Below, piece after piece: positions 1,700 to 32,375 of a DNA stretch of 64,000 bases. The notes beneath the pieces were generated by a model. That model saw only the letters and a list, made by a program, of their open reading frames with translations. It did no database searches and was not told where the DNA came from. Origin of the DNA: an uncultured Gammaproteobacteria bacterium (GTDB lineage Bacteria; Pseudomonadota; Gammaproteobacteria; SZUA-229). Every line of letters begins with the position of its first letter. Position 1 is the first letter of the stretch. The stretch spans positions 23,655 through 87,654 of the forward strand of contig CAVWXQ010000014.1 of assembly GCA_963759005.1 (NCBI GenBank), in the 5' to 3' direction. Position numbers and translations under genes: made by a program.

Positions 1700-1725
1700 T
1701 TTTAATCTCCACTCTCAATTCTCAA

Positions 1726-1812
1726 GCCCCCTCTCCGCCTGGGCGAGGGTCAGGGTGAGGAAAAAATATTACCCCCTCATCCTGTCCTTCTCCCCAGGGG
1801 AGAAGGGACCTT
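1726..1812. repeat. REP-like multi-hairpin intergenic element, copy 1
   Basis: Stems ccctc/gaggg, gagggtcagggtgagg/cctcatcctgtccttc and ccttctcc/ggagaagg. ORF-track translations such as PSPLPKGEG come from the repeat, not from a gene. Confidence 0.5.
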
Positions 1813-1888
1813 CTTTCTGGCTGTCTCGCGTGCTCGCGGGTGCTTCGCAAACGCTCCAACCCAACGCACGCTCCTGCTTCCAGCGCGC

Positions 1889-1975
1889 CCCCTCTCCTTT
1901 GGGGAGAGGGCTGGGGTGAGGGGAAAAATTCCCTACCCTCGTCCGGCTCTTCTCCCAACGGAGAAGAGATCTTCT
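1889..1975. repeat. REP-like multi-hairpin intergenic element, copy 2
   Basis: ccctctcc-N5-ggagaggg and ctcttctcc-N5-gagaagag hairpins. About 65% similar to copy 1. Confidence 0.5.
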
Positions 1976-2011
1976 GCCGAACAGCACGCAGACGCACACC
2001 GCAGCGTAATT

Positions 2012-2974
2012 CTATTTGTCCTCCGGCCGCTCCAGCGCGATCAGGATCTCGACCTCGCCCTGCTCGCGCAGACGCACGATTTCCTGTTCAACCGCAGCTT
2101 CCATTCGTTCCTCGCGCATATGGTCTCGCAGCTTTTCTCGAATCTCGTCCAGCGGCAGCAGGTAGGCCTCCTTGTGCTCCTCCAGCTTCAGGATGTGCAC
2201 GCCGAAAGGGGTCTCCACCGGGTCCGATATTTCGCCGGGCTTCAGCACGAATGCGGCTGCTTCGAACGCCGGCGCCATTTCGCCGCGCTTGAACAGGCCG
2301 GTATCGCCGCCGTTCTGTCTGGTCGCATAATCATCCGAGAACTCGCGCGCGAGCTCCGCGAAATCTTCGCCCGCACGGGCCCGTTCCAGGATCGGCTTCA
2401 TCTGTTCGCGGATCGCGGCCTTGTCGTCGGTCGTGCCCATCGGCTTCCAGGTCAGCAGGATGTGGCGCACGCGCACCTGCTCCGGGAACGTTAGCCGGAC
2501 CTCATTGTCGCGATAGTATTGCTCGAGGTCTTCGTCGCTGACCTCGGCCACGCTCAGGCGGATGTCATCGAGGTATTTCTTGGCAGCGATCATGCGCCCC
2601 ACGTGCTCGCGGTAGCTCTCCGGCGTGAAACCCTCGCTCTGGATGCGCCGGTTGAATTCATCCGGCGTCTTGAACGGCTGGCTGATCTCGTCAATGGCCC
2701 TGTCGACCTCTGCATCGATGACCTCGATACCTTTGGTCTCCGCCGCCTGGCACACGAGCTCCTGCTTAATCATTTCGTCCATGGCTTCCTTGCGCAGCTT
2801 GGTTAGCCTGTTCAGGTGGTCGCCCCGCCCGGCCACGCTGATACCGTACGGGCGGCGGTATTCCTGGTAGAACGCGTTGAATCGCTCGTAGCTGACCTCG
2901 ACCCCGTTCACGCGCGCCGCGGTGCCGGGATAAATGCCCGTCGCCCAGACCGAGGCAACGGGCGTGACAAGCAA
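2012..2974 (-). CDS. PpiC/parvulin-type peptidyl-prolyl cis-trans isomerase (SurA/PrsA-like)
   Basis: Parvulin domain recognised in translation (for example ...GDTGLFKRGEMAPAFEAAAF...PFGVHIL). The signal peptide RILLLLLVTPVASVWA lies upstream in frame, but only a TTG start is available. Confidence 0.75.
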   Translation of the reverse strand: MLVTPVASVWATGIYPGTAARVNGVEVSYERFNAFYQEYRRPYGISVAGRGDHLNRLTKLRKEAMDEMIKQELVCQAAETKGIEVIDAEVDRAIDEISQPFKTPDEFNRRIQSEGFTPESYREHVGRMIAAKKYLDDIRLSVAEVSDEDLEQYYRDNEVRLTFPEQVRVRHILLTWKPMGTTDDKAAIREQMKPILERARAGEDFAELAREFSDDYATRQNGGDTGLFKRGEMAPAFEAAAFVLKPGEISDPVETPFGVHILKLEEHKEAYLLPLDEIREKLRDHMREERMEAAVEQEIVRLREQGEVEILIALERPEDK

Positions 2975-3013
2975 CAGCAGCAGAATTCGTAGCGCCGCAA
3001 AACCGCATGGCTG

Positions 3014-5068: not shown

Positions 5069-5530
5069 AGATCAACTCCTCGGTCGTTTTATCTATTTGT
5101 TCAGCGTGGAAAGTATTCCATGTCGGGTGGCGAGGTGTCGAAGAAGGATGTGAACCCTTTTTCACCATGCACGGCAGGTTGAAACATGGACTCTCCTTAT
5201 CGTTACGCTGTTACAGTCATATGATTATAAACTATCCGGTCATCACCAGGGCAGACTTGTGAACACGCTTTGATTCCCATCGCAGCAGTCAACATCGATC
5301 AGTTCTGATTGCCATCCTGGCCCGACAGTATTGCCGTGTTTCCTCAACACTGTGTTTGCCATATTACTGATGCCCATTAGAGGCGAGAGTTCAACCGCTT
5401 ATAGCTTGCTGAAGCTAAGCCTAAGTTGGGACATATTACAGCTGCGGTGCGCACGGCGCACCCTACGTTTCCTGTCACTTCTATCCAGCCCTCAGCCGGA
5501 TGTAATCGGTACGCATAGCGCAGCCTGCTT

Positions 5531-5559
5531 CAAAAAAATGGGTGCAGCCTCCTGGCTGC
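5531..5559 (-). terminator. rho-independent terminator after the multicopper oxidase gene
   Basis: On the minus strand: stop (5571-5573), 11 nt, hairpin gcagcc-agga-ggctgc, then acccattttttt. Confidence 0.5.
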
Positions 5560-5570
5560 ATCCACATGTT

Positions 5571-8500
5571 TTATTGTGCGGCCCGTCCGTTGGGCCGCAG
5601 ATGGAATGCTACTACGGCGTCGCTGGACTCCACCCTCAGGATACCGAACTGGCCGTTGCGGTTACCGTTGGGCTGTAGTCGCGGAACAGGTAGTCACCCT
5701 CAACCGCACCGCTACCACCGGCATTGAACAGGATCGGCCAGTGACCGTAGGCGTGGCCCATGCCTTCCTCGCCGCCCATGTACTTGGCCGATCGGGTTCA
5801 GACCGAGCGCGATGGAATCGACCGTGCCATGAGTCCAGACACAGGCCTGTCAGACCGAGGTCGTTCTCGACCCGGGCAGACGAACGGATCGCGCTGCCAC
5901 ACGTGGCCGTGCAGGATGAAGGTACCGTCACGGTCAGCCGAGGCGCCGTTGAGCACGTGGATGCGGCTGGCCTGCTCCGGCAGTCGCCCGGAACACCGGT
6001 GTTGCCGGATCACCCGCTGCGCTCACGCCCGGGATCGCCGGGACTGCGTTGGGCTCGCCGATGGTCAGCAGGTTGGCGTACATCGCCTGCGCGTTCGGGA
6101 TGCGCCGAAGCTGTTGGGCGTACCGGCGTTGCCGAAGGGCACATCCGGCGGCAGTTTGAAGCGGAACCAGCTCGGCTCCATGCCGTAGTTGAAGCCGGCG
6201 AAGCCGCTGTCCTCGGCGCCTTCACGGCCCAGCTCACCCTGGTGGATGTTGGCGATCGCGGTGCCGTCCTTCCAGCGGATATTGGCGATCTTGTGACCGA
6301 TCGCAGGTTCTCGCGGAAGTCACCGCCGGAACCGGCTCCACCGACAGGCGCGGTCACCGTGACCTGGGCGCGGGTCAGGCGTGTCCAGCCGGATTCAGCG
6401 TGCCGTCTGCATTGACCGCCATCTGGCCATCAGGCACCTGGGTGTCCTCTGCCACGGTTGAACCGGGCGGCAGGATCGACAGCGCACCGAACAGACCCTT
6501 CTGCGGCTGCTTGACGCGGTCCGCCGACAGCAGGTTGCTGGCGCCGAACTCGATCGGGGTAGCCACCAGCTCGAGCAGCTCGGTGTTGCCCTGCTGACCG
6601 ACCGTGTTGTAGGTCAGGTCGCCCGCGTACCAGCGGTAGGTCCTGGAACTCGCCGGGCGCGACGATCTGCTGGCCCGGCGCGTTCTGGCCGACCAGGACA
6701 CCGTCGTCACGGCTGGCGTCGTACTCGACCAGCTGGGCGTGCAGACCGACGTGGCTCGACGGCCGGATCAGGTTGTTGTTGAAGAAGTGCATCTCCGGCA
6801 ATGCCGGTGACCGGATCAACCTGGATCCTGCGCTTGACGATCCACATCATGTCCTGCCAGCCGGCCAGGTCGGGCGCGACCGCCGGGATGCGGTTGCGCA
6901 GCGTGGTCTCGATGCAGTCGCCCGCGTTGGCGCGCAGCGCGATCGGCTCGACCGGAGCAGTATCGCTCAGACGAACCGGACAGGTTGGTGCAGCCAATGG
7001 GTCAGCTAACGGCAGGCCCGTTACCGGATCCAGACAACCGGGGTCGGCCGGATCTATAACGACCAGATCACTGGTGCGGACGTACATCATCGCGGTCGGA
7101 TCGTTCAGCGGACCGTCGCCGCCCTGCAGCGTGACCGGCGGCTCGCCGCCTTCACCCGGCAGGGTCAGCGTCGGTACCGTGGTACCACGACGGTTGTAGA
7201 CCAGCGTGCCGCCGGCGGTATTCAGCGGACCACCGTTGTTGTCGCGATACCGTCACCGTTGGAGTCGCCACCCACGTTGGCCGGGATGGTCACACCGAGG
7301 TTGTTCGGCAGCACGTCGTTGGCCAGTACCGCGGTCACGTCATAAGCCGACCACGTTCGGCGGTCATCCGGGCAGACGCCGTTGAACTCGTTGGCGTTGA
7401 CCACGCGGCGGTTGCCGGCCGGGTTGCTCGGCAGCTCGACGAGGTCCTGTTGACGGTTGCCGTAGGCGCGCAGGATACCCCAGGGGCCGGTCCAGAAACC
7501 GTCGCGGGTGGCGTCGGTCGCGTACAGGTAGTCGACCGGTTGCCGACCTGATTCCGGATCCGGGTTGATCGGGATCTGCAGGCTGAACTGCTCGGAGATA
7601 CCGTGCGACTGGAAGTTACGCCAGCCGGAGTTCGGCGAGCGGCCGAAGCCGGAGCCGTTGGACAGCCACTTCATGCCGTGCACGGTCGCCTGGTGCTGCT
7701 CCTCGGTGGCGCCGACCTGGATCTTGATCTTGACGTCGTCACCCTCGTAGGCACGCATGATCGGCGTGATCGGGTCACCGCGCCGGCGGTCGCAGTTGAT
7801 GCCGTCGCCGGTGTTGCCCTGGCAGTACGTCGCCGGGGTCCGGTAGCCGGGCGGCATGTCGCCGAAGCTGGTGTTCAGCTGCGGGATCGCGCGGTCGCTG
7901 CGGCTCTGCAGCGCGAACGCGAGGTCGCCGGCTTCACCGGCCGCCTGGGTACCGTTCTGGCCGTCAGGACCGGCCGCGTTCGGATCGAACACGCGCAGGC
8001 CCACCGGCTCGTTGCGGTAGTTGACCACGAACATCGAGCTGTGGCTGATGTTGATGGCCTCGGCGCAGGGACGCGGCACGTTCGGATCGGCATTGCCGGC
8101 CGGTCCCGGGCAGACGCCCTCGGCCGTGACCATGTCCGGGAACGGCACCGACTTCAGCTTCAGCGGCGGATTGATCGCCTGCTGCCAGGTGTCCTGCATC
8201 GTCGGGCGCGAAGGCCGTGGTGACGTCGAACGCGAACGGGCTGATCGATGTGCGTCTGGACCGGACGACCATCCGCGATCGGCACCGACGTAGACACCGG
8301 CCTCGTAGGCGTGCTGGAAGTCGCTCATCTCGAAGTAGAACTCGCGATGATCCGGGATGTTCTCCGAGCCCGTGGTGCTACCCAGTGGCGCCTGGCAGGC
8401 GTCATGATGATCGCCTGCCAGGTGGTCGGGCCACCGTCGTGCACGCGGAGCCGGTCTGCCGTCGACCAGCGCGCCGATCTGCGCGCCGCTCTCGTTGTGC

Positions 8501-11500
8501 ACCCAGGTCGAACCGGCCGGCTCGGCCAGGATGGTCGAGTACAGGCCGATCTGCTGGAAGGTCGACGGACCGTAGTGGTCGTGCGAGAAGGTCAGGCCGA
8601 GGCCGCGGTCCACACCGGCCACGTTGACCAGCGGGTCCATCAGGATGCGCTGGATGTGGTGCGCGCGCCGCAGTATTCACCATAGGGCTCGACGTCACAG
8701 TGCCGCCGACACCGGTCACCGAAGAACGGATGCGGCTTGCGGCGTGCAGCTCGGTCACGCCAGCGCACGACGCTGCTGCCCGGGTCACCGGTGTCGATGG
8801 TCGGCACCGGGGCCAGATCGGTCAGGTCAACCGTGGTGGTTGGCCACCGCAGCGACCAGGTCGGGCGGCAGGTCGTCGGCCTTGCCGAGCGCGACCAGCA
8901 GGTCAACCAGGTTGGGCGCTTGACCGGCCAACGCGTTGAAGTGGTTGATCGCGTTGATGCGCTCCTCCACCATGCCCGGCGCCAGCGTGCCGTCCTCGTA
9001 GTTCCAGCCGTTGGCCGCACCGTCGTTGGTGGTCAGGTCCCACTTCGGCAGGTGGATGTGCTGACCGATGATGTCGGTCGGCGTGCGCACCTGGAAGTCG
9101 TCCAGCTCGAACTCCTTCGGCACCAGGTTGGTGTGCAGGATCTTGCCGCAGTCGAAGGTGTTGAAGCGCATCACCAGCGGCTCCGGCGGACGCTGCTTGG
9201 CGATGGTCGGCGCCACGTCGTCCCACAGCGCGATGATGCGCTCCTGCGGGTAGTGCTAGCCGACCTTGTTGAACACCGCGTCGATCTGCACGTTGGCGAC
9301 CTTGTAGGTGCGCGGGTTCTCGCAGGTCCAAGTCCGAGCGCGCCCATGTTGCCGCAGCGTACCCTGGTCGTTGTCACCATCGAACCAGTGGCCGATGACA
9401 CCAGCGATCAGCGGGGTGCCCGCGTCGTCGATGCAGGGATCCTGGAAGGGACCGCCCGGTACCGGCAGGGCACCGTTGAGCACGAAGCCGCCGCTGCCGT
9501 CGGGGTTGGCCACGCCGGTTGTCGCGTCACACAGAGCCTCCGAAACGGTGCCGTCACGGTTCTGCTTGTAGGTGTCGCGGCAGCGCACGGCGTGGTAGGC
9601 CATGCGACCTGCTCCAGTCGTCGGTGCCGATCTCGGGGAAGTACACCGGCTGGGCGACCTCGACTTCCTTGGCGAAGTCGAGGCGGCTGTTGGTGTCCAG
9701 CGAGAGGCCGCCGGAGGAGTAGCCGAGCAGGTTGTGGCGCGGCAGGCCGCCGTCCCAGCCGCCGGCCTGCGCCGGTGCGATATCCGTTCGCTGTCGCGCC
9801 GGCCTCGGTCAGCATGTCCAGCGGCGGGGTCGGCATGCGCTGGCCAACCGTGCCCTTCGGGCAGCGGAGTCGTCTGCATGTCGCGTCATCACGCCGCACT
9901 CGTTGCCGGCCAGCCAGAACGGGAAGCCGGGGCTGACGTCGTCGGCGGTACCGAGGTCAGCGTCGGGACCGGCCACGGCGTGCGATAGTCGATCACGGCC
10001 TGGCTCGGACGTTCGGGGATGCCATCCGGGCCTGTCCTGCCGCCCAGCACGCCGAAGTTACCGCGGTCGACCGCGACGACCTTGACCGGGGCAGGCATAC
10101 GGCATGGCCTTGCCGGGCAGCGGCACGATGGCCGGAATCGGCCAGCCGTCGGGCAGCTCGGCGTCGGGCAGCGCGCGGGCGCCGGCCGCCGGCTTACCGC
10201 TGCGCAGCGCCCAACGCGTGTCATGGAAGCCGTCACCGTCGGGTCGGCGTTGCCCGCCATCTGCATCACGGCGCTGTCGAGACGGCCAGCAGGCTGCCGG
10301 TTTCGAACGTGTCCTGGATGCGGATGTGGTACCACATGCCCTGCGCAAAGTGCGGGTAGAAGTGGCAGTGGAAGATCGCGTCGCCCGCGGTCTTGTTGCG
10401 GTTGCCGACGCCGCCGTTGTTTATCTCGTAGGTGTGGCCCGAGCCCGGCATGATTTCCTGGGCGTCCAGGTAGTTGGCGTTGTCGTCGTTCGGGTTGAAC
10501 AGCCACTGGTGGTTGTGCAGGTGGAAGATGTGCTGCTCGAACGCACCGACGTGGATGTTGCGGATCTTGACGAAGTCACCGGTGTAGGAGTGGTGCACGT
10601 TGGACGGGTCTTCCTGGTACAGCGCGTAGTTGCCCGGGATCGGCGGGTTGGCACCGATCGGCGATCACCGCCATTGGACCGGGACGTCGATCGTCGAACT
10701 GACGCCAGCAGGCCGGACGTCAGGATGTCGGTCGGGTCGCACTGCTCGATGCCGGTGTTGGCCGGGAAGTTGACCAGCATGGCCGGGTCGCCGACGGTCT
10801 GCGAGGCGAGGAAGAACTCCTCGTAGGCGCAGTCGGTGCAGTCGTGCATCGGGCCGGTGTGCAGGCGGTTGGCGATGATTTCGGAACCGATGCCGCCGGA
10901 GCCGTAGTTGATCATGAACTGGTCCTTGACGCCGGCCAGGGTGTAGTTCAGCACCGGGTTGCCGTACCAGCGCGGGAACACCTGCGAGTTGGTCTGCTCG
11001 TCGTGGAAGATCGAGGTGAACTCGCGGAACGGCTCGAGCCGGTTCGGCAGGCTCGGCACGTTGTTGCCGACGCTCTCCAGCGGGTAGGTGCTGGCCGGGA
11101 ACGTGTACCGTCGGCATTCGGGCCGGCGATGATCGCGTTGATGTCGCTGTGCACCAGCTCGTTGCCGGCTGTCAGCATGTTCAGGATCGGCAGGCCGGCC
11201 TTGCCCTCGGAGATCCAGGGCTCGACGTTCGGGTAGGTCGCCTCGTAGTCGATGATCGGCTGGCCGAGGCCGGAGTCGTGTCGGTGGTGGCCAGGCGCAT
11301 TTCTTCCTCGGTCACCATGCTGCGGTACATGCGCGCACCGACGGGCTGGACGTTCAGCTCGCCGAACATGCCGATGCCGAGGTTGCCGCTGTTCTGCTCG
11401 CTGCCGAGGGTGGCGCCGTAGCTGTTGATCACGAAGGCGCCTTCGTGCGGGGTGTACAGGTTGTAGGTCCTGGCTCTCGTTCGGTGCTGCCATGCCGAGG

Positions 11501-12069
11501 CCGCAGTTGCGCTGTCCGGCGTCAGTCGGGCCAATGTTCGCGCCGGGGTTGTTACCGACCATGCTGCCGTCGTCGGCGATGTCATCGACCAGCTTCGGTG
11601 CCCGAGGCGTGGAAGCCGGCGCAGCGGCCCGCGACCTGGTCGTTGTTGATCAGCTGGTCCTGCTGCGCATTGTTCGGATTGGCGACCGGCGCCAGCAGGT
11701 TGGTGAAGTTGACCGTCAGGCAGCTGCCCGCGACCGAACGCACCACCAGCGGACGGGGCCGCTTGTCGGGGCGCAGCTCGACGTTGCCTGCGGTACAGGC
11801 TGCCCTGCGAACAGGGCACGCCGCGTCGGTCCCGTCGATGACATCGCGCTCGAGCGCGTAGGTGATCCAGTTCGGGTTCTGCGCACCGAGGCGGTTGAAC
11901 ACCGTCGGGTTGTCCAGCACCACCACGTTGGCGGTTATGGTATTGCTGTACAGCTAACCGCTGCCTGCGCACCCGGCACAAACAGCATGGACAGCATTAC
12001 CATGCATAATATAACAACAGCGAGCAAAATATTATTGTTCGCCATTGGACTGGTGGCTTGAGTTTTCAT
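5571..12069 (-). pseudogene. giant multicopper oxidase (MnxG/MofA-like), about 2160 codons, at least 12 frameshifts
   Basis: ATG at 12067-12069 with RBS ggagag and signal peptide MKTQATSPMANNNILLAVVILCMVMLSMLFVPGAQA. Cupredoxin-like pieces are spread over three frames, including FHCHFYPHFAQGMWYH (T1 Cu site), IFHLHNHQW, IGQHIHLPKWD and HGMKW. Confidence 0.7.
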
Positions 12070-12117
12070 TATAGCTCTCCTATTTCTTTTTGGAGCAACG
12101 GATTCTGTCTAAACCTG

Positions 12118-12154
12118 TTGACCCACATTTGTGTTGACCATTTGACAATGACCG
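12118..12154. promoter_or_regulatory. TTGACC/TTGACA direct repeats in AT-rich region upstream of the oxidase gene
   Basis: ttgaccN10ttgaccN2ttgacaN2tgacc within a 290-bp 35%-GC island between GC-rich genes. Confidence 0.25.
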
Positions 12155-12401
12155 GTGAACTTGTTTCAGCTGAATTTGCCGTTTTCGAGTACTAAAAAAC
12201 AACGGAAATGTCGCAAGTCCAACATTTAGACCAAGTATAAACATATCGAATGTGAGCAAATTTGGTAACCGACTATAGGTACTGTTTGTACCTGATAAAA
12301 AGTCCAGTTTTAAGCAGTACTTTAGTACAGTAAGCTAGCCACAATGGGGGATGCGGGCATGGCAGGGTTTTATTTTACAGGCAAAAAAACCCGACTATAA
12401 T

Positions 12402-13121
12402 CTACTCACTTACCGAGGTGGTGCTGAACAAATAGCCAAGCCAGGGTATATCCATCAACAGCGGGATACCCGCCCTGCCCTCGTTGCGAGTTTCGAGGAT
12501 CAGGCCACCGAGCACCACAGTCGCACCGCTCTGCACCACGACACTGCTGCTGATGCTGCGCTGTGAAATCGCCACATTGCCGCCGCCGCCGACAGCCGGC
12601 TCTGAACCGGGAAGGCTGACTTCCTGGCTGATTTCCATGGTGACCTGGCCGCCGGCGTTGATGCGCGGAGTGACGGACAACAAGGTGCCGGTGTCACGAA
12701 ACTGCACCTCAGAGACCACCGGGGCATCCGGGTTTGTGGTACTCTGGGAACTGCGCACGGTGACCGGTATCTGGTCACCCACGCGGATATTCGCGGTATG
12801 GTTGTCCAGCACCATGATCTGCGGCGCCGAGAGGAATTTGACATCGGTCTTACTGGCCAGCAGGTCAATAAACATCCTGGCATCATTGCTGCTCGAAAAC
12901 GTGGCCAGTGTCAGGCCATCACCACCAGCAGCGGTGGGCACCGGTGCGTTGAAGCCCAGACTGGTGTTGCCGCCGGAGAGGAACCAGCGCACGCCGTAAT
13001 CCAGCGCATTGGAAAGGGTCACCTCGGCGATGGTGGCCTCGATCAGCACCTGGCGAGGCTGCTCATCGAGCTGTTTAATGACGGCTTCGATGCCACGGTA
13101 ATCCCTGGGACTGGCCAGCAA
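12402..13121 (-). pseudogene. secretin (GspD/PilQ family) C-terminal domain fragment
   Basis: VLIEATIAEV, SAPQIMVLDNHTANIRVGDQIPV and IPLLMDIPWLGYLF match secretin C-domain motifs. Frame closed by tag/tga immediately upstream, so the N-terminal two-thirds are absent. Confidence 0.75.
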
Positions 13122-22318: not shown

Positions 22319-23173
22319 TTAAGTTGACAATCCAGTTCTCGCCGCCTCCCATAGATGAATTGCGTGCTTTCGAGTCTCGCCCCAATGATAGCCACCAAGA
22401 TTTCCGCTTTGTTGAATAACACGATGACAGGGTATAAGAAACCCAATCGGGTTTGAACCGATAGCCCTGCCAACAGCACGGGCTGAATTTGGACGTCCAA
22501 TTGAAGCAGCCACCTGAGAATAACTCACTACTTTGCCCATTGGAATATCAAGCAAAGCCCGCCAGACACTTACCTGAAAATTTGTACCAGAGACCAGTAA
22601 AGATAATGGGCGGTCTTTATCATTTTCTATAGCGAACATTGAATCGATAATTTCAGCTGTATGTTTGCTGTTGTTTATTAACTGCGCATAAGGCCAGCGC
22701 TTCACAAGATCTTTAATTTCCTGTTCAGCATTGCTCTCTTCAGGAAATGAAAATTTACAGATCCCTCGTGGCGTAATAGCAATAAACGCGCTGCCAAATA
22801 CCGTTTCATGAACCGCATACTCAATAGTCAGGCCACTGCCCTGCGTTTTAAATTCACCTGGCGTAACTGCCTCGAGACTAACAAAGTGGTCGTAAAGTCT
22901 CGAGCCGCTACTCAACCCGACTTCATGCGTTACCTCTAATATGGGTTTAGCCTCTTGCAGCAATTTTTTTGCGCGTTCTACGGTAAGAACCTGTAAGAAT
23001 CTTTTTGGGGTAACGCCTGCCCAACGCGTGAACATCCGCTGAAAATGATAAGAACTTAAATGAACATGCGCTGCTATTTCATCCAGGGTTGGCTGTTGCC
23101 CAACCTGATTAGTTACATAATGGATAGCTTTCGCGATTCGTTCATAATCCGACATATTTCTTATGTCCCGCAA
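22319..23173 (-). CDS. Ada-like bifunctional AraC-type regulator / methylated-DNA-protein-cysteine methyltransferase
   Basis: AraC HTH in the N-terminus. MGMT active site IPCHRVI in the C-terminus. Confidence 0.8.
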   Translation of the reverse strand: MRDIRNMSDYERIAKAIHYVTNQVGQQPTLDEIAAHVHLSSYHFQRMFTRWAGVTPKRFLQVLTVERAKKLLQEAKPILEVTHEVGLSSGSRLYDHFVSLEAVTPGEFKTQGSGLTIEYAVHETVFGSAFIAITPRGICKFSFPEESNAEQEIKDLVKRWPYAQLINNSKHTAEIIDSMFAIENDKDRPLSLLVSGTNFQVSVWRALLDIPMGKVVSYSQVAASIGRPNSARAVGRAIGSNPIGFLIPCHRVIQQSGNLGGYHWGETRKHAIHLWEAARTGLST

Positions 23174-23716: not shown

Positions 23717-24022
23717 TTATAACTCACCCGACTCGTCCACTTCAGTAATCCAGTACATCCCCTTACCTGTAAACGATATACCCGAACCACGAAGCTCATC
23801 CAGTAAAGTTTTCGCGCGGGCATCTTCCAGAATCACATCAACACGCACCTGAGGCACATAACCCACCACTTTATCCCGAGCCGATAAAAAAGCATCCTGC
23901 TTTAATTGCGAGCTATGCTCTTCGATATGACTGAACATAAAACTGTCCAGCTGCAGGCTACGCAAACAGTCAGCCAGTTCCTGTTGCAGTGATGTATGCA
24001 CCACGATGGATAATTTTTTCAT
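23717..24022 (-). CDS. DUF3240-like P-II-fold protein, typical 3' partner of HME-RND pumps
   Basis: About 100 aa. Position overlaps the RND stop by 4 nt. I recall this family as a small P-II-like protein downstream of czc/cus pumps. Confidence 0.5.
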   Translation of the reverse strand: MKKLSIVVHTSLQQELADCLRSLQLDSFMFSHIEEHSSQLKQDAFLSARDKVVGYVPQVRVDVILEDARAKTLLDELRGSGISFTGKGMYWITEVDESGEL

Positions 24023-27000
24023 GCTGAGACCTCCACTTTTTTCACCCGCATCTTTTTCTCTAATGCTTCTTCTACCCAGGCATAGAGTGCCGGCAGTAAA
24101 ATCAATGTCAGGATGGTTGAGGTAAACAGGCCGCCAATCACCACGACGGCGAGTGGCTGCTGCAGTTCAGAGCCGGGGCCGGTCGCTGTCAGCAGGGGCA
24201 ATAAACCAAAGCTGGCTATCATGGCTGTCATCAGTACCGGTCTTAATCGTCGTTCAGCGCCCCGTCTTACCGCTTGCTGAATACTTAAACCCCTTTGCCT
24301 TAGTTGATTGAAGTAACTCACCATCACCACACCATTGAGTACCGCAACACCAAACAGGGTAATAAAACCTACCGATGCCGGTACCGACAGATAAAGTCCG
24401 GAATAATACAAACTGACGACACCGCCAATCATAGCGAAAGGGATGTTCAGAATAATCACGCCTGCCTGTAACAGCGAACGGAAAGTGGTAAACAACATGA
24501 AGAAAATAAGCACTATGGCAACAGGTACCACCAGAGCCAGTCTGGTTGATGCACGCTGCTGGTTTTCGAACTGACCACCAAAGGTAACATAATAACCCGT
24601 AGGCAAGTCCACTTTTTCTTCTATCTTACGACGTACTTCCTCGACAAAACTGACCACATCGCGGGCCTCTACATTTGACTGGATAACCACCAGACGTTTG
24701 GCCGATTCACGTATAATCTGAACCGGTCCATCCACCACTGTCACTTCGGCCAGGTGTCCCAGAGACACTTTAGTACCATTGGGTAAACTCACCAGCATTT
24801 TTTTAATGGCTGCCGCTGAGCTGCGATCTTTTTCCTGATAGCGCACCAGGATGCCGACACGACGATTATTTTCCAGTAATTCGGTCACCACCTGGCCACC
24901 GACTGCGGTTTCTACTAACCTGTTAATGTCTTCAACATGGATGCCATAACCGGAAATCACGTCCTGATTGATGTCGATCTGTAAATATTTCTGCCCTGAA
25001 ATATCAGCACGAAACACGTCTACTGCACCCGTTATATTATTCACCAGTTGTTCAATTTCGATGGCTTTCTGCTCCAGTACAAACAGATCATCACCATAAA
25101 GTTTGATTGCCATGGCAGAACGCACACCGGTTAGCATTTCTGATACGCGCATATCGATTGGCTGACTGAAGGCGTAATCAACATTATCAAAAGGGGCTAA
25201 TTTTTCACGCAAATTTTCCTGGAACTGTTGCAATGAAATATTCCATTCTTCCTGTGGTTTTGTCACCAGAAAATTATCGGTCTGATTTAAGCCCATTGGA
25301 TCCATGCGTAATTCATCAGCGCCTGTTCGCGAGGTGACGCCAATCACTTCAGGCAGCTCCATCATGGCTTTTTGAATCGGTGCGTCCATTTCCAGCGATT
25401 TTTCCAGGGTGATACTGGGATCTTTTTCTAACAGGATAACGGTACTGCCCTCATCCATGATCGGCATAAATTCTTTACCGATATGAGGGAACAGGGTTGC
25501 TGTTGCAAACAGCGCCACCAGCGCTAACCCTACCGCCGTTTTTCTATAACGTAGCGCCCAGTTCATCGCCGGTAAATAAATGATTTTCAGCACTCGCATA
25601 AGACGACCATCTGTGTCTGCATTTTGGGCCTCGGCCAGCGCATTTTCGGCCTGCTTTTCATCGTCCTGTTTTTTCGCCTGTTCATTCGGTTGATTTTGGA
25701 CATGAAGTTTCATAAAGAAACTGGCCAGCACTGGAATCACGGTTAATGACATTATTAACGAACCAATCAGGGCAAAAGTAATGGTAATGGCCAGCGGCGA
25801 AAACATTTTCCCTTCCAGTCCGGTCAGGCTAAACAATGGCAGAAACACAGCCACAATAATCAGTATGCCGGAAATAACCGGCGACGATACTTCCAGCACC
25901 GCGCGATAAACAAGGTGCAATTTATTAACACCTGCAGGCGCTTTACTGAAATGGCTATGAATGTTCTCCACCACCACGACGGCGGCATCAACCAGAATGC
26001 CAATAGCGATTGCCAGCCCGCCTAGTGACATCAGGTTGGCAGATACATTGAACAGCTTCATCATAATGAAGGTAAACAACACGGTTAACGGCAAAATTAA
26101 TGCCACCGTTAACGCACTGCGGATATCACCCAGCATAATAATTAACACCAGCAATACCAGCACAACGGCTTCACCCAGTGCTTTTTCCACCGTCCATACT
26201 GCCTTGGTAATCAGCTCGGTTCGATCATAAAACGATTCGATGCTAACGCCTTCAGGCAAAATAGCTTTTAATGTTTCCAGTGCTTTTTTAGTTTCTGCTA
26301 CCGTCTGTAAACTGTTGGCGCCTTTACGCAACAGAACCAGTCCGGTGACGACTTCACCCTCGCCATCAGCAGTTACCGCGCCATAACGTGTCATACTGCC
26401 AACGCGCACCTCGGCTACATCACTAATATGTATCGGTTCACCATAAAGTGTGCGTACGGTTATGTTCTTAATGTCGTCCACGTTGTTTAATTTTCCGACC
26501 GTACGCACCAGTAATACTTCATCGTTCTGGTTGATGCGATCACCGCCAGCATTGCGGTTACTCTCCATCAGAGCATGCTCTATTTCGTCGATACTGATGC
26601 CGTGTTTAACCAGCGTTTTCGGTTTGATAACTACTTCATAGGTACGAACTTCACCGCCCAGTGAATTAACATCTGCCACCCCTTCTACTTTGCGCAGATG
26701 CGGACGGATGACCCAGTCCTGCAAACTGCGCAATTCCTGGTTGCTATAACTCTTGCCGCTATCATCGCCGCTGTTGGTGTCGTAGTTATGGCCGATAATG
26801 CGATACATAAATATCTCACCCAGTGGGGTGGTAATGGGAGCCAGACCACCTTCAATATCGGCCGGTAATGAATCCCAAACCTGGTTGAGTCGCTCTGTCA
26901 CCAGATTACGCGCCAGATAAATATCCATGTCATCTTCAAAGTCGACAACAATCACACTTAATGCATATTTTGTTGTTGATCTAAGTACGGTCTGTCCGGG

Positions 27001-27228
27001 AATGCCCTGCATTTCCATTTCAATCGGAAAGGTAATGCGCTGCTCAACTTCACTGGGTGACATACCGGGGGCCTTGATAATAATCTGCACCTGGGGCGCT
27101 GAAATATCCGGAAAAGCATCAATCGGTAAGGTTTTAAACGACCATAAACCGGCAGCAGAAATGCCCAGTGTGACTAACACAACCATCAGTCTCTGGATAA
27201 GAGAAAAACGTAAAATTGCAGCAATCAT
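24019..27228 (-). CDS. heavy-metal efflux RND permease (CzcA/CusA family)
   Basis: About 1070 aa with 12-TM RND architecture. N-terminus MIAAILRFSLIQRLMVV...DAFPDISAPQV is typical of HME-RND. Likely start is the ATG at 27226-27228, 1 nt after the OMF stop, with RBS ggagg. Confidence 0.9.
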   Translation of the reverse strand: MIAAILRFSLIQRLMVVLVTLGISAAGLWSFKTLPIDAFPDISAPQVQIIIKAPGMSPSEVEQRITFPIEMEMQGIPGQTVLRSTTKYALSVIVVDFEDDMDIYLARNLVTERLNQVWDSLPADIEGGLAPITTPLGEIFMYRIIGHNYDTNSGDDSGKSYSNQELRSLQDWVIRPHLRKVEGVADVNSLGGEVRTYEVVIKPKTLVKHGISIDEIEHALMESNRNAGGDRINQNDEVLLVRTVGKLNNVDDIKNITVRTLYGEPIHISDVAEVRVGSMTRYGAVTADGEGEVVTGLVLLRKGANSLQTVAETKKALETLKAILPEGVSIESFYDRTELITKAVWTVEKALGEAVVLVLLVLIIMLGDIRSALTVALILPLTVLFTFIMMKLFNVSANLMSLGGLAIAIGILVDAAVVVVENIHSHFSKAPAGVNKLHLVYRAVLEVSSPVISGILIIVAVFLPLFSLTGLEGKMFSPLAITITFALIGSLIMSLTVIPVLASFFMKLHVQNQPNEQAKKQDDEKQAENALAEAQNADTDGRLMRVLKIIYLPAMNWALRYRKTAVGLALVALFATATLFPHIGKEFMPIMDEGSTVILLEKDPSITLEKSLEMDAPIQKAMMELPEVIGVTSRTGADELRMDPMGLNQTDNFLVTKPQEEWNISLQQFQENLREKLAPFDNVDYAFSQPIDMRVSEMLTGVRSAMAIKLYGDDLFVLEQKAIEIEQLVNNITGAVDVFRADISGQKYLQIDINQDVISGYGIHVEDINRLVETAVGGQVVTELLENNRRVGILVRYQEKDRSSAAAIKKMLVSLPNGTKVSLGHLAEVTVVDGPVQIIRESAKRLVVIQSNVEARDVVSFVEEVRRKIEEKVDLPTGYYVTFGGQFENQQRASTRLALVVPVAIVLIFFMLFTTFRSLLQAGVIILNIPFAMIGGVVSLYYSGLYLSVPASVGFITLFGVAVLNGVVMVSYFNQLRQRGLSIQQAVRRGAERRLRPVLMTAMIASFGLLPLLTATGPGSELQQPLAVVVIGGLFTSTILTLILLPALYAWVEEALEKKMRVKKVEVSA

Positions 27229-27229
27229 T

Positions 27230-28573
27230 TTACACTCCTCCTTCGAGCAGGCTGACATTCAGTGTATCGGCATCCGATATCATTTGCCCGGCAAACAGCT
27301 TGACCTCCGCTAACTCCACCCATGCCTGATAGAGTAATTCCATATAAGTTAAGCGTGCTTCAAAATAGGTATTATTTGCATCTACCAGAGACAATATATT
27401 TAATTCGCCACTGCTAAATCCCTTGTTGGTTAAGTCGAGCATCTTCTTCGCTGGCTTAAGCACTTTTTGTTTATAGTCCCTGGCCTGTTCAACTACATGG
27501 TTCAAATGCGTAAAGCTTTTATTCAGATTAATTTTCAACTCACGTCGCAATAACTGTAACTCGATACGTTGCTGACTGGCTTTATAGGTGGCTTTGCTTG
27601 CTGCGGTGTTTTTACGGTCATTGATTGGAATTTGAACATTGAACATGATGGCGTAAACATCACCGCGTCCACTGAGAAAGGTATCTTTTGACCAGCTCAA
27701 AGCGATAGTCGGGTCGACCATCTGGCTACTGCGAGCAACATCTATTTCATGCTTCGCCGCCAGAACCTGCTGCTGCTGGCTGGAGAGCTGTGCATGATTA
27801 TCCTGTAATGAAATCAGATTATTAATATCGGGAATTTCTTCGATAGGCTGCAGCTCAGAAACTGTTGCCACACTGCCAATCTCCAGACCTAATAATTTGA
27901 CAAACTCATTCACCACTTCATTGTATTTACCTTCAGCGCTGCTTGCTGCCTGACGCGCTTCTTCCTGAATAATGGTCAGTCGCATTTTTTCCAGTGGTGT
28001 TAAATAACGCACAACAATGCCCGCTGAATTTTTCTTTGATTGACCACCCCACTCATTAGCCAGCTGAAGCTGTTTTTCAGCCAGCTTTAATTCTGACGAA
28101 ACAAGCTGTAACTGGTGATATATTTTCGTCACACGATTTTGCACCTGCAGCGTCTGATACTGGCGGGAAAACCGGGCCGCTTTCAGACTGGCCTCAGCAG
28201 CTGATGTCTGGTATTTGATACGTGAGATTGGGATGGGCTGGCTAATCGTAATATCAGTCAGATCATACCCGCCGGTTTCATCATCCTGCCCCAATTTATT
28301 ATCGATGCGAGCGCCTATGCTAGGTTCTGGCCATAAACTGGACAGGTTTATGTCCTCCTTGCGCGCACCAATTTCAGCCATCGCCTGTTTTAATTCTGGT
28401 GAGACAGACATTGCCTGCTCAACGCTAGATTGCAAGGTCCATTGCTGTGCAATGGACGGTGTACTCAGCAGCAGCATTATTATCAGTGCCAATAGCACTA
28501 TTAGTACAGCGGTGATTTTTGAAAATACGGCTTTTGTCGACTTAATGGTGGTAAGAACGGGGGTAATAAACAT
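27230..28573 (-). CDS. outer-membrane efflux factor (TolC/CzcC/CusC family)
   Basis: 447 aa with a signal/TM N-terminus. Coiled-coil-rich two-repeat OMF pattern. C-terminal ...LNILSLVDANNTYFEARLTYMELLYQAWVELAEVKL. Confidence 0.8.
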   Translation of the reverse strand: MFITPVLTTIKSTKAVFSKITAVLIVLLALIIMLLLSTPSIAQQWTLQSSVEQAMSVSPELKQAMAEIGARKEDINLSSLWPEPSIGARIDNKLGQDDETGGYDLTDITISQPIPISRIKYQTSAAEASLKAARFSRQYQTLQVQNRVTKIYHQLQLVSSELKLAEKQLQLANEWGGQSKKNSAGIVVRYLTPLEKMRLTIIQEEARQAASSAEGKYNEVVNEFVKLLGLEIGSVATVSELQPIEEIPDINNLISLQDNHAQLSSQQQQVLAAKHEIDVARSSQMVDPTIALSWSKDTFLSGRGDVYAIMFNVQIPINDRKNTAASKATYKASQQRIELQLLRRELKINLNKSFTHLNHVVEQARDYKQKVLKPAKKMLDLTNKGFSSGELNILSLVDANNTYFEARLTYMELLYQAWVELAEVKLFAGQMISDADTLNVSLLEGGV

Positions 28574-28707
28574 ATTAAAAACTCCAGACCAGGGACTGCA
28601 AATCTGCTTTTTTAACCAGCTTTTTAGCTAGCTTCACAGTTAGTCCCACAACAACACATCAGCAGAAAACTTCTGCTGACAAAAAAATTAACGGGTTGGT
28701 TTTGAGT

Positions 28708-29055
28708 TTATTGAGGTGGCGCGCGCAGGGGCGGCGTGCCACGAAAAGGAATAATCGGTAAACGTGTCTGGCTTTCTCGCAAACGACCGATGAAGGTTCG
28801 ACACTGCACGGCTGCCAGAACAGCAATCAGCAGGAATACAGCCAGCATGCTTACACTGTTTTGTTTTACTTTCAGCACACTGTCCGGACTGACGATGATT
28901 TCATGACTACTATCATCGGGCATGAGGTGACTAGCAAAAGAACTTATGTCCACAGCAAAGCCATGCTCTACAGTTGCTGCAGTTTCCTGGGTATGAATAT
29001 GTAATTCGACGGAAGTCAGAAACAGCAACGCAGTGATCACATACATGATCAGCAT
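28708..29055 (-). CDS. small two-TM membrane protein with His cluster
   Basis: TM helices at both ends. HIHTQE...H...H in the loop. First gene of the pump operon by position. Confidence 0.3.
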   Translation of the reverse strand: MLIMYVITALLFLTSVELHIHTQETAATVEHGFAVDISSFASHLMPDDSSHEIIVSPDSVLKVKQNSVSMLAVFLLIAVLAAVQCRTFIGRLRESQTRLPIIPFRGTPPLRAPPQ

Positions 29056-29228
29056 TTTGATGGTGAGCTGTTTTTTATTTTGACGACATAATCGAATATT
29101 CTAATATATTTATACTTGTATGACCATCCCGTATACTTCACAGGAATGCCGCTGATGGGCACATACGACCCACATGGACATGGAAAGTTCGGGAAACGTA
29201 ATAAGCCTGATAATTATTTTCAATGTGT

Positions 29229-29382: not shown

Positions 29383-30130
29383 GTGTGTAGTTATATGACT
29401 AATGTAAGTTTTCAACAATACAAAGTATGGGATGTAGCAACCAGATTATTTCACTGGATTAATTTCATAACCATTATTTGCCTTATTTTTATGGGTTTAA
29501 TTATGTTGTTCAAGAAAGAACTCGGCATAACCAGCATTGAAGCTAAAGTGGGTTTAAAAGAAGTTCATGTCATTATAGGTTATGTCTTTGTATTAAATTT
29601 TGCCTGGCGAATCATCTGGGGTTTCATCGGAAACAAATATGCACGCTGGACTAACATTGTTCCGGGCAAAGGTTTTATTAGTCTTGTTCGTAATTACATT
29701 CGATTCTGTAAAAAGCGGCGACCCCGAACAATACATCGGCCACAACCCGCTGGGACGTCTGGCAATATTATTCATTCTTTTACTTATGTTTACCTCAGCC
29801 GTAACCGGTCTGGTGCGCGCCGGCACTGATATTTATTACCCGCCTTTCGGTTCGTTTGTTGCTGACTATATTGCGGAGCCCGGTATAGACCCGGACAGCA
29901 TAAAACCTTATATTGCGGAAGGCACGAATAAAGATAAGGCTGCCAGCTTAAAAGCGTTTAAAGATCCTTTTGGTCAAATCCACATCTATTGTGCATACGT
30001 ACTTATGTTTATGATCGTCCTGCACATTTTCGTTGTGGTGCGCACCGAGGTACGAGAAGGTGGCAGTTTGATCACCGCCATGTTTACTGGCAACAAAATA
30101 TTGGCAAAGAAACCGATTGATATAGATTGA
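29383..30130 (+). CDS. cytochrome b561 / Ni-Fe hydrogenase b-type cytochrome family, frameshifted near 29670
   Basis: RLFHWINFITIICLIFMGL (frame A). GHNPLGRLAILF and HIFVVVRTEV (frame B). The two ORFs 29383..29829 and 29600..30130 overlap. Confidence 0.6.
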
Positions 30131-30224: not shown

Positions 30225-32375
30225 TTATTGTAGATTTAACTGTCTGCGACCACGCGCCTGATAACTTACCGAGCCACTGGCTGATCCACCATCACCACTA
30301 CAGGTTAAGGTAAATGTTACCGGACCATTAATCACTATAGACTCAGAACCATTGGTCACTTTTAATCCAGACCAGTCACCGGAGGCAGAGCAGCTGGTGG
30401 CATCTGTTGATGACCAGCTTAATGTTATCGTATCACCACGAAATACTGACGCTGGACTTGCCGTCAGATTAACCGTCGGTACAATAACGGCTGTTGGTGC
30501 ATTTACTGTTACTGTCACGCTGGCACTGGCAATTCCGCCGTCACCGGTACAGCTAATGGTATAGCTGGTGGTTGCCGTCGGAGTAACCACTTCAGAACCA
30601 CTGGTAGCACGACTGCCGCTCCAGCCACCCGAAGCCGTACAGCTTATGGCATCACTTGAACTCCAGCTCAAGGTCGCTGACTGGCCCTGGTCAATAGTTA
30701 ATGGCGAGGCTAAAAGGGACACAACAGGTACAGGGAGCGTGCCACTAATAACATCATTAAGCACTGTTATTTGCGCACTGGCGATCTGCTCATGTTTCAA
30801 ACTTTGTGCATCATAAAGTGTTTTGAAAGTCTGCACCTGTTCCAGGTGGTTATCACGATATAGATCCTGTAAATAACCATATGCGATAGTCTGATAATTT
30901 ATAGACACGCTAACATTCAGATCACCGGCAACAGTAACAGGAATACGGTAAGTTATTTCATCACTTCCCTGATTAAAGTTGGCATCATCAAACGCCAGAC
31001 CGCGAACTGCAACATCCGATGGCACGGCAAGCTTGTCAAAACCTTCTGGCGTCAGCCTGTTATCTTTCAAATACTGTGCGCCACGCAACAGGGTAAAAGT
31101 CACATTACTATCGGAATCACCCATAATCGGCTCATAAATCTGCACCTGGTCAGCTGAAGTAACCAGATCGTAATGCGGTTCAAACACAGTATTGTCTGCG
31201 TCATTGTCTGCACCTACAATAGAACCATCTGCGTTTATCCGGCCTGATTCAAAAACAATATTATTGTTACTGTCAGTAACCTTAAAGTTGAGCCACATGC
31301 GCCGTGATGGATAACCTGTTGGCGTTTTATGGCCTGAGTTATTTTGCACTTTAACCTGGGCTTCCAGCACACCATTGTTCACCGAAGCCGATACAAAGGC
31401 TATGTTTACTGCGCTCTGCAACATGGCGCGGGCACGGTCAATACTTAAATCCATATTGGCACTGGTCACGTCCAGCTGCGCGGCATTATTGTTAAGCAAG
31501 GTCAGCATTGTGGTATTGGCCCCCACCAGCTGATGTTTGGCAAAGCCATCTTTAACACCGAGCCATCGTGGACGATTGGCTATTTTGGATGTTGTTTTCG
31601 GCATATGGCAATCCTGGCAGCTTTGCGGGTTGCTGCCAGCGTCATCAAAAATCGAATTCTGCCATTCTGTATAGGGCATCTGTTCGGGAAACTCTGTATC
31701 TGGTGTGGTGCTCACTACCAGGCCGTTTGCATCAACAAAAGGTGTTTTTAAATCATGGCAGGTCGCACAGACGGCTGAATCTGAAATATGTGCACTGTAT
31801 TCCGGGGTGTATCCGGTGTTATTAATCATTGGCTGGGCGGTGATGTTGCTATATTGCCCGTAGATTGTTTTCGTATCATTAATTGTGTAGTGACCTGATG
31901 CGCCAGCCGGTGTACCCAGGGTAGCATCATCTTTGATTTGATGACACACAGTACAGCTGACACCATTCATACCGGCATCATGCAGTTCATGATTAGTATC
32001 AAGGATGCCGTTGGGTCCAAACAGTGTGACATCGCCACCCTGTACTTTCGTGATTTCGTAGTTAGCCATTGGTGCATGACACTTGCTGCACTTATCATTT
32101 ATCAATGAAGATAGATGCGGATTACGTTCTAACTCAGTCGCTACCTTTGCACGCCAGAAAGGGTCCTTGGTCGCATTCGCCATCATCGATGTTCCCCAGT
32201 CCTCGACGATGGACACATTATCACCTGAAGTATCGGTCAAGCCATCATGGCACATGGTGCAGTTTCCTGAACCTGAAAAATGTGAGGTGGTGAAATTGTC
32301 ATTCTCTGCCTGCGCAGTGAAAGAAAAAAGAAAAAATAGGATAGTTACTGATAGTCGAAATACGTTTTTGCTCAT
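30225..32375 (-). CDS. secreted pentaheme c-type cytochrome with two C-terminal Ig-like repeats
   Basis: Signal peptide. Five CxxCH motifs (CTMCH, CSKCH, CTVCH, CATCH, CQDCH). About 55-aa repeat (LxASP...SATLSWSS...SCTASG.WSG...TYTISCTGDGG) present twice. Confidence 0.8.
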   Translation of the reverse strand: MSKNVFRLSVTILFFLFSFTAQAENDNFTTSHFSGSGNCTMCHDGLTDTSGDNVSIVEDWGTSMMANATKDPFWRAKVATELERNPHLSSLINDKCSKCHAPMANYEITKVQGGDVTLFGPNGILDTNHELHDAGMNGVSCTVCHQIKDDATLGTPAGASGHYTINDTKTIYGQYSNITAQPMINNTGYTPEYSAHISDSAVCATCHDLKTPFVDANGLVVSTTPDTEFPEQMPYTEWQNSIFDDAGSNPQSCQDCHMPKTTSKIANRPRWLGVKDGFAKHQLVGANTTMLTLLNNNAAQLDVTSANMDLSIDRARAMLQSAVNIAFVSASVNNGVLEAQVKVQNNSGHKTPTGYPSRRMWLNFKVTDSNNNIVFESGRINADGSIVGADNDADNTVFEPHYDLVTSADQVQIYEPIMGDSDSNVTFTLLRGAQYLKDNRLTPEGFDKLAVPSDVAVRGLAFDDANFNQGSDEITYRIPVTVAGDLNVSVSINYQTIAYGYLQDLYRDNHLEQVQTFKTLYDAQSLKHEQIASAQITVLNDVISGTLPVPVVSLLASPLTIDQGQSATLSWSSSDAISCTASGGWSGSRATSGSEVVTPTATTSYTISCTGDGGIASASVTVTVNAPTAVIVPTVNLTASPASVFRGDTITLSWSSTDATSCSASGDWSGLKVTNGSESIVINGPVTFTLTCSGDGGSASGSVSYQARGRRQLNLQ

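Follow-up and report, generated by a model that had tools for sequence, protein, structure and literature searches.

An HME-RND efflux operon without an adaptor gene and with a rebuilt periplasmic tip in its outer-membrane channel

Periplasmic adaptors, or membrane-fusion proteins (MFPs), are held to be obligatory for resistance-nodulation-division (RND) pumps that work across two membranes, in which they bridge the transporter to the outer-membrane channel and open that channel. Here we describe an operon that has no such gene, located at positions 23717-29055 of a 64-kb stretch of DNA from an uncultured Gammaproteobacteria bacterium (contig CAVWXQ010000014.1; the whole stretch is referred to as the window). 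It consists of four co-directional genes on the minus strand, which encode a small His-rich membrane protein, an outer-membrane factor (OMF) of the TolC/CusC family, a heavy-metal efflux (HME) RND permease of the CusA/CzcA family and a DUF3240/P-II-like protein (Table 1). Among the operons that we compared, the absence of an MFP gene is perfectly associated with a rebuilt tip on the first periplasmic hairpin of the OMF.

Table 1. Features of the pump operon, with positions in the window.
Feature	Position	Strand	Evidence or remark
Promoter candidate, sigma-70-like, TGGTCA-17-TAGAAT, upstream of the small gene	29098..29126	-	consensus at 9/12 positions; such matches are no more frequent here than chance predicts
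Small His-rich membrane protein, 115 aa	28708..29055	-	two hydrophobic segments, several His
Stem-loop of 11 pairs within the 134-nt spacer that precedes the OMF gene	28657..28681	-	weak T-tail (TGTTGTTGTG)
OMF (TolC/CusC family), 447 aa	27230..28573	-	Pfam OEP, two stretches, 3e-30
Rebuilt first periplasmic hairpin tip (H3/H4 turn), OMF residues 176-195, GGQSKKNSAGIVVRYLTPLE	27989..28048	-	alignment and AlphaFold2 model
Arg189 codon of the OMF, in place of the canonical turn glycine	28007-28009	-	
Coupling junction: GGAGGAG ribosome-binding site in the OMF 3' end, TAA, 1 nt, RND ATG	27228..27243	-	
HME-RND permease (CusA/CzcA family), 1069 aa	24019..27228	-	ACR_tran 2.7e-290; TIGR00914
DUF3240/P-II-like protein, 101 aa	23717..24022	-	Pfam 3.7e-11

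The operon had been noticed before in a sequence-only reading, which placed a small gene for a His-containing membrane protein 134 nt upstream of an OMF gene, followed by genes for a CzcA/CusA-type permease and a DUF3240 protein. The coordinates of the small gene and the spacer hold, and the identities of the other three products are borne out by matches to Pfam and NCBIfam models. That reading had also considered that the 447-aa product might be an MFP instead of an OMF. A misread MFP is ruled out by the OEP match, by an AlphaFold2 (AF2) model (pLDDT 69.9) with the two long helical hairpins and the strands of the TolC fold, and by Foldseek, which with this model retrieves TolC, OprM, CusC and SilC at a probability of 1.0. 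The protein, which thus combines the TolC fold with two OEP repeats, also matches TIGR01844 weakly; it has a Sec signal peptide (...STPSIA/QQ), and no lipobox cysteine was seen in it. The ACR_tran match of the permease spans positions 1-1020 of the 1021 in the profile, and its score against TIGR00914 is 1053 bits, at a family cut-off of 701. The DUF3240 protein, presumably cytoplasmic, scores 43.4 bits against PF11582 (cut-off 21) and 24.2 bits against the P-II model, slightly below the cut-off of the latter.

The genes are tightly joined. At the OMF/RND junction, which reads GAAGGAGGAGTG TAA A ATG, the GGAGGAG Shine-Dalgarno sequence lies within the OMF gene and a single nucleotide separates the stop codon from the next start, in agreement with what had been read from the letters earlier. 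The true start of the permease is the ATG at 27228, which matches the N-termini of all relatives, and not position 27258 as given by the mechanical list of open reading frames (ORFs). The RND stop and the DUF3240 start are joined by an ATGA overlap. The stem-loop in the spacer upstream of the OMF gene may be an attenuator or a processing site; an Rfam scan of the window gave no match.

The sequence-only reading had found no adaptor gene between the OMF and RND genes, and this absence extends over the 64 kb. A hidden Markov model (HMM) was built from 11 MFPs of related operons and applied to every ORF of 50 aa or longer on both strands; it recovered the MFPs in the loci fetched for comparison at E values from 1e-177 to about 1e-5, and gave no match at E<=1 in the window. 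The best E value in a tblastn search of the window with these 11 MFPs and E. coli CusB was only 0.1, and Pfam scans of its larger ORFs revealed no HlyD-type domain. In zneCAB the MFP gene, zneB, lies after zneA; no MFP gene in this position, nor one on the opposite strand, came up when the HMM was applied to all ORFs of all the MFP-less loci. No MFP gene or remnant of one is thus present within the window: of the components of a tripartite RND pump, the operon supplies the OMF and the permease, without a cognate MFP gene.

The same arrangement is found in many relatives. The assembly index lists no exact copy of the window protein. The closest RND homologues in the database (76-96% identity) come from uncultured Gammaproteobacteria, and the three of these for which the context was retrieved (86-96% identity) have the order small gene, OMF, RND, DUF3240, with the MFP absent. 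A scan of one genome per GTDB species gave 80 loci with RND identities of 48-91% and up to 10 kb of flank on each side (compared loci are designated by L numbers). In more than 40 of them, which come from separate assemblies, the OMF gene abuts the RND gene, so that the check for such an arrangement proposed in the sequence-only reading has a positive outcome. The full order with an MFP gene, which that reading expected to find in relatives if its interpretation were wrong, is present at RND identities of about 70% or below, and absent in all relatives examined at 76-96%. Measured from the conserved RND ATG in 37 MFP-less loci, the spacing between the OMF and RND genes is -4 nt in 22 loci, -1 nt in 3, +1 nt in 9 and +2 nt in 3. 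Most MFP-less loci have zero MFP genes within ±10 kb. The exceptions are L043, L045, L052 and L070, in which the nearby MFP belongs to another efflux system or, in L043, is a more divergent MFP encoded ~8 kb downstream.

Several genomes carry the module more than once or next to a conventional one. A Nitrospiraceae metagenome-assembled genome (MAG) has tandem MFP-less OMF-RND-DUF3240 modules (L044, 2204-6893 and 8700-13404), another MAG contains two MFP-less modules (L034 and L036), and in L052 (4000-15096) an MFP-less module is followed at once by a complete small-OMF-MFP-RND set of a more distant HME type. The carriers are labelled as uncultured Gammaproteobacteria, Mariprofundus, Ghiorsea, Gallionellales, Sideroxydans, Sideroxyarcus, Ferrigenium, Ca. 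Nitrotoga, Acidiferrobacterales, Nitrospiraceae, Planctomycetales and Omnitrophota. The MFP-less state persists down to ~60% RND identity in MAGs assigned to the Gamma-, Zeta- and Betaproteobacteria, Nitrospirota, Planctomycetota and Omnitrophota, a taxonomic breadth that may be inflated by the binning of MAGs. All four genes are under purifying selection, with dN/dS values between the window and its relatives of 0.07-0.10 for the OMF, 0.04-0.11 for the RND permease, 0.04-0.08 for the DUF3240 protein and 0.16-0.23 for the small protein. No conserved neighbouring gene beyond the four was seen in the MFP-less loci, and no plasmid-borne relatives of the OMF were found.

The evidence that bears most directly on how such a module might work lies in the OMF. 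An alignment of 42 OMFs from MFP-less operons with 28 from MFP-containing relatives, together with CusC, showed that the first periplasmic tip is rebuilt in 42/42 of the former and 0/28 of the latter, as judged by the alignment and by a regular expression for the motif. In the MFP-containing OMFs and in CusC, the first turn is short and has the form RRxQAG(E/D)LSxLE, whereas the rebuilt tip has an insertion of 3-12 aa followed by (V/I)R(Y/F)L(T/S)PLE. Arg189 in place of glycine is the sole fixed difference, over the entire OMF, between the MFP-less group and the nearest clade that has an MFP: the position is Arg in all 42 MFP-less OMFs, and Gly in 8/8 members of the nearest clade, in 19/20 of the other MFP-containing OMFs and in CusC. 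At the second tip (GFSSGELNILSLVDAN in the window) both groups are canonical, so that the window OMF has a short glycine turn at one of its tips and not at the first. In the AF2 model, the first tip is a 15-residue loop of low confidence (178-192) between two long helices (117-177 and 193-228), and the second is a turn of 5 residues. It should be noted that the turn glycine was equated with the turn of OprM and TolC by alignment and model. Counted from this glycine, the Glu aligned with the TolC gate residue D153 is retained in the MFP-less OMFs. Locus L052 provides an internal control: its MFP-less module has the rebuilt tip and the adjacent MFP-containing module the glycine tip. A difference in lipoprotein character was also considered, and none separates the MFP-less group from the nearest MFP-containing clade.

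The relationship between tip and operon has predictive value. The regular expression matches 117/120 of the closest OMF homologues in the database. Among the best 150 matches of an exhaustive HMMER search of 1.84 billion cluster representatives were 102 full-length OMF clusters at 50% identity. The residue at the turn is Arg in 36 of these, Gln within similar surroundings in 4, and Gly in 56. These were classed by alignment column; the strict regular expression misses variants such as IRYQSPLE and VQFLTPLD. The genomic contexts of four clusters were looked up by tip state (L092, L093, L094 and L095), and the tip matched the type of operon in 4/4. Two clusters with an Arg tip (P0365 and P0389) have the OMF gene directly followed by the RND gene, with the MFP absent; one with a Gln-Phe tip (P0406) has the order small-OMF-RND-DUF3240, again without an MFP; and one with a Gly tip (P0381) has small-OMF-MFP-RND-DUF3240. 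Thus, L092, L093 and L095 are MFP-less and L094 has an MFP, with the qualification that P0365 (L092) had been scored as motif-less by the regular expression and its Arg tip came to light only once the context was known. The same pairing is seen in loci retrieved on other grounds: L087 and L088 combine the rebuilt tip with the lack of an MFP, and L089 and L090 have an MFP and no rebuilt motif.

The claim that nothing had been deleted between the OMF and RND genes stands for the recent history of the operon, but not for its ancestry. The nearest MFP-containing clade has 8 members with 65-70% RND identity (L013, L014, L016, L019, L021, L023, L027 and L058), all with a CusB/CzcB-type MFP between the OMF and the permease (HlyD_D23 1e-45 to 1e-47; TIGR01730 7e-48), and the same holds for nearly all more distant relatives. 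Because sister and outgroup lineages have the order small-C-B-A-D (C, B, A and D standing for OMF, MFP, RND and DUF3240), this order is ancestral, and the MFP gene was cleanly lost in an ancestor, the CA state having since been kept in many lineages. The tip change, which is common to the MFP-less group, argues for a single loss; a neighbour-joining (NJ) tree of the OMFs is undecided, the group being monophyletic in 40% of the replicates. Loss and reshuffling of components seem frequent in the subfamily, as in L056 (6773-13386), which has the order MFP-OMF-RND-DUF3240, and in L091 (4196-9508), where a small-MFP-RND-DUF3240 operon lacks the OMF and only a 72-aa ORF occupies its place. Among the 120 homologues nearest to the MFP of the sister clade, we saw no relocated orthologue of the lost one. 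None of them has a longest contig whose length matches that of a contig with an MFP-less module, and in the three contexts sampled among these the MFP gene adjoins an RND gene each time.

In searches with phmmer, the best solved-structure match of the permease is ZneA (5e-198), with CusA at 3e-183. Its fourth transmembrane segment (TM4) carries the motif AIGILVDAAVVVVEN, which is CusA-like in having Ala where CzcA and ZneA have Asp (AIAIG vs AIDFG). The charged TM4 motif D-x6-E, within VDAAxVxxEN, is present, and its residues D414 and E421 are invariant in all 77 aligned relatives. The three methionines of the CusA triad (M573/M623/M672) are absent, their places being taken by L599, Q649 and E697, of which Q649 and E697 are invariant in the MFP-less group. 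Two insertions, at ~147-164 and ~508-543, have no counterpart in most of the 77 aligned relatives, ZneA among them; they consist of HNYDTNSGDDSGKSYSNQ and of a Lys/Glu/Gln-rich loop, the latter placed between TM6 and TM7. We infer that the substrate is a metal cation in kind. In three loci with 86% RND identity to the window, a gene for a copper storage protein (Csp, PF03860) lies directly upstream of the small gene (L004, 5579-6064; L087 and L088, 7530-8015). It is absent from the window, and these neighbours hint at copper. Other metal-homeostasis genes found near related loci encode P1B-type ATPases, HupE/UreJ_2 and DUF6488 proteins, a cation diffusion facilitator (CDF) transporter in L095 and a ferritin in L094.

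None of the other products of the operon stands in for the missing adaptor. The small protein has a first hydrophobic segment ending in LHIH (LHxH in the family), a variable middle rich in His and acidic residues, a second hydrophobic segment and a C-terminal PP-LRAPP motif in which RAPP is invariant in the family (e.g. L013, 6930-7424). No Pfam or NCBIfam model matches it, and iterated HMM searches placed its homologues directly upstream of the OMF gene in both MFP-less and MFP-containing loci. It was rejected as an MFP substitute on the latter ground, and is an accessory gene of the whole subfamily. The window protein is taken to start 11 residues later than L001 would suggest, because the upstream MRQNKK start of L001 is out of frame or absent. 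The DUF3240 gene follows the RND gene in 77/81 compared loci, with or without an MFP, and was rejected as a substitute for the same reason. An extra domain or insertion that could bridge the gap within the permease or the OMF is excluded as well, since there is no group-specific RND indel and the mature OMFs of MFP-less and MFP-containing operons are equal in length. A comparison of the permeases for relaxed conservation turned up only a handful of differing sites.

The sequence-only reading had left two alternatives, an adaptor encoded elsewhere or a different architecture. Both are still live, and the rebuilt OMF tip tilts the balance to the latter. We give a probability of about 45% to the view that the four-gene module is an adaptor-independent pump of a distinct and widespread HME-RND subfamily. 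Put more specifically, and a little more tentatively, it may be a two-component RND pump in which the OMF docks directly on the permease via its rebuilt H3/H4 tip, without a periplasmic adaptor. In such a pump, the RND trimer would move a metal cation by means of the proton gradient; the rebuilt first tip, with Arg for the turn glycine and an extra loop, would engage the RND docking domain and open the OMF on it; the ring of adaptor hairpins used in other pumps would be bypassed; and the small His-rich protein and the P-II-like DUF3240 protein would be accessory subunits shared with adaptor-containing relatives. There is background for contacts at this place. Contacts have been proposed between the conserved RLS motif in the hairpin of MexA and residues V199/V201 and T406/V408 in the turns of OprM, the TolC turns cross-link to the docking hairpins of AcrB in vivo even without AcrA, and surface plasmon resonance detects OMF-RND binding that is independent of the adaptor (PMC4446572). 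Adaptor independence is favoured because the state of the tip tracks the operon and not the genome, because the module is spread over MAGs of several phyla, because tandem copies of it occur, and because no relocated MFP orthologue turned up among the closest homologues.

Several observations weigh against this view. There is no RND indel specific to the MFP-less group, and the docking-domain segments are alike in both groups. The sole near-fixed RND difference from the nearest MFP-containing clade, Tyr761 (44/44, vs Phe in 8/8), falls within the DC docking subdomain. Throughout the MFP-less group, the counterparts of CusA D155, R771 and R777 do not vary; we take these CusA residues to form salt bridges with CusB in the CusBA structure, and their retention would fit continued binding of an adaptor. 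To our knowledge, RND and OMF do not touch each other directly in the tripartite RND pumps whose structures have so far been obtained by cryo-EM, a point discussed in PMC4446572. Finally, an NJ tree of the permeases nests the 8-member C-B-A clade within the MFP-less group in 97% of bootstraps, so that there may have been one loss or several, or a later gain.

The module may instead be part of a conventional tripartite pump that takes its adaptor in trans, either from a paralogous system or from an orphan MFP, with an OMF tip fitted to the non-cognate partner. We consider this possible, although we lean against it. A permease so little altered, with its presumed adaptor-binding positions unchanged, is what such an arrangement would predict, and in L043, L045, L052 and L070 a second complete HME system lies within 10 kb. 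There is also a precedent, as E. coli AcrD uses AcrA, which is encoded at another locus, together with TolC (PMC8277102). AcrD resembles the operon studied here in having no MFP gene beside its RND gene; however, its OMF is also unlinked and its adaptor is known, whereas the window OMF is translationally coupled to the permease. No MFP gene is encoded in the 64 kb or, for most MFP-less loci, in their flanks; the 120 homologues closest to the ancestral MFP gave no relocated orthologue; a spread over several phyla is easier for a self-sufficient unit; and in L052, where a resident adaptor is encoded next door, the tip still follows the operon.

According to another explanation, which appears improbable to us, the permease and the channel are uncoupled, the former exporting to or acting in the periplasm and the latter, with an altered and perhaps leaky gate, serving as a separate exit channel. 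CzcA alone reportedly transports cations in proteoliposomes, which would be consistent with this explanation. However, the coupling of the two genes at -4 to +2 nt in 37/37 loci suggests stoichiometric co-assembly, the Glu aligned with D153 and the whole second tip are retained, and a permanently open OMF would be costly, while porins already pass small cations. On the side of an altered gate, TolC gate residues such as D153 lie near the periplasmic turn, and the glycine turn is within the periplasmic gate region of the OMF (PMC8277102). An example of a gate-defective OMF is Borrelia BesC, a gate-disrupted channel that pairs with the hairpin-less adaptor BesA (PMC4446572). The BesABC system is equally a precedent for an OMF tip or gate that co-evolves with the loss of the adaptor hairpin (PMC4446572), as the adaptor-independent reading would have it, but in that system the BesA adaptor remains and the pump is a multidrug rather than a metal pump, whereas the window has no adaptor gene. 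That the operon is decayed or mis-assembled, through a recent deletion, a pseudogene or an artefact, is scarcely credible: the neighbouring frameshifted cytochrome b561 gene and a sharp break in GC content at ~12-13 kb in the window could be cited in its favour, but more than 40 separately assembled relatives show the same junction, the ORFs are undamaged and have dN/dS values of 0.04-0.23, and the rebuilt tip is found in ~40 clusters at 50% identity.

Compared with the Cu(I)/Ag(I) pump CusCFBA of E. coli (reference operon L086), the window operon shares a CusA/CzcA permease, with matches in TM4 at CusA A399, D405 and E412, and a TolC-family OMF whose gene stands before that of the permease, as the OMF gene stands first in cusCFBA. 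It differs in lacking CusB and CusF, in having an OMF that is not a lipoprotein and whose first tip is rebuilt, and in having the DUF3240 and small proteins in addition. With CzcCBA and ZneCAB of Cupriavidus, which pump divalent cations, it shares the closest structural match, ZneA, and a Glu at the third position of the Met triad (M672 in CusA, E697 here), and its small upstream gene is reminiscent of czcI. Both of these systems have an MFP, however, whereas the window and the other MFP-less loci have none before or after the RND gene. The sister lineage (e.g. L013, L019, L023 from Marinobacter antarcticus, L089, L090 and L094) has the four genes in common with the window, at 65-70% RND identity, and differs in having its own CusB/CzcB-type MFP and the canonical RRxQAG(E/D)LSxLE tip. 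CusA together with CusC and without CusB has been reported to be commoner than expected, on the basis of the presence or absence of best hits and not of operon structure (PMC3548706). This is the nearest remark that we met with: full-text searches of a literature library brought up no paper on a family of HME-RND operons without an adaptor, on such a variant of the OMF tip or on what DUF3240 does.

The family provides a natural test of whether an RND permease and an OMF can couple directly, and of what then opens the channel. If direct docking does take place here, the family would be a natural instance of the architecture that was once put forward, and then abandoned, for AcrB-TolC. Even with an adaptor in trans, it would be instructive for the co-evolution of channel and adaptor. 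In either case, Arg or Gln versus Gly in the first tip is a one-residue marker that predicts operon architecture, for a module that is common in iron-oxidising and sediment bacteria.

Some other features of the window deserve mention. Within positions 1-13000, the GC content is 0.59-0.68 up to ~12 kb and 0.39-0.48 thereafter. The high-GC part encodes SCO1/SenC, a SurA-like rotamase and a beta-propeller protein, and has long ORFs without a Pfam match on both strands at 5.5-12 kb; a secretin ORF at 12402-13121 consists of the C-terminal domain alone. The break could be due to a foreign island or to a chimeric join in the assembly. A cytochrome b561 gene (Ni_hydr_CYTB, 29383-30130, plus strand), which runs divergently to the operon, is broken into two reading frames near 29700 by a frameshift mutation or a sequencing error, its orthologue in L001 being intact (244 aa). 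Beyond it, the minus strand encodes a 716-aa multihaem cytochrome (30225-32375) with weak MtrC/MtrF-like and cytochrome c7/c3 matches, and two di-haem peroxidase/MauG-like proteins (55468-56904 and 59061-60371). These multihaem and di-haem proteins hint at a lifestyle of extracellular electron transfer or iron cycling, matching the many iron-oxidisers among the relatives of the pump. Downstream of the operon lies an Ada-like gene (22319-23173, minus strand), encoding an AraC helix-turn-helix and a 6-O-methylguanine methyltransferase DNA-binding domain, which is syntenic in L001-L002 and is probably unrelated to the pump.

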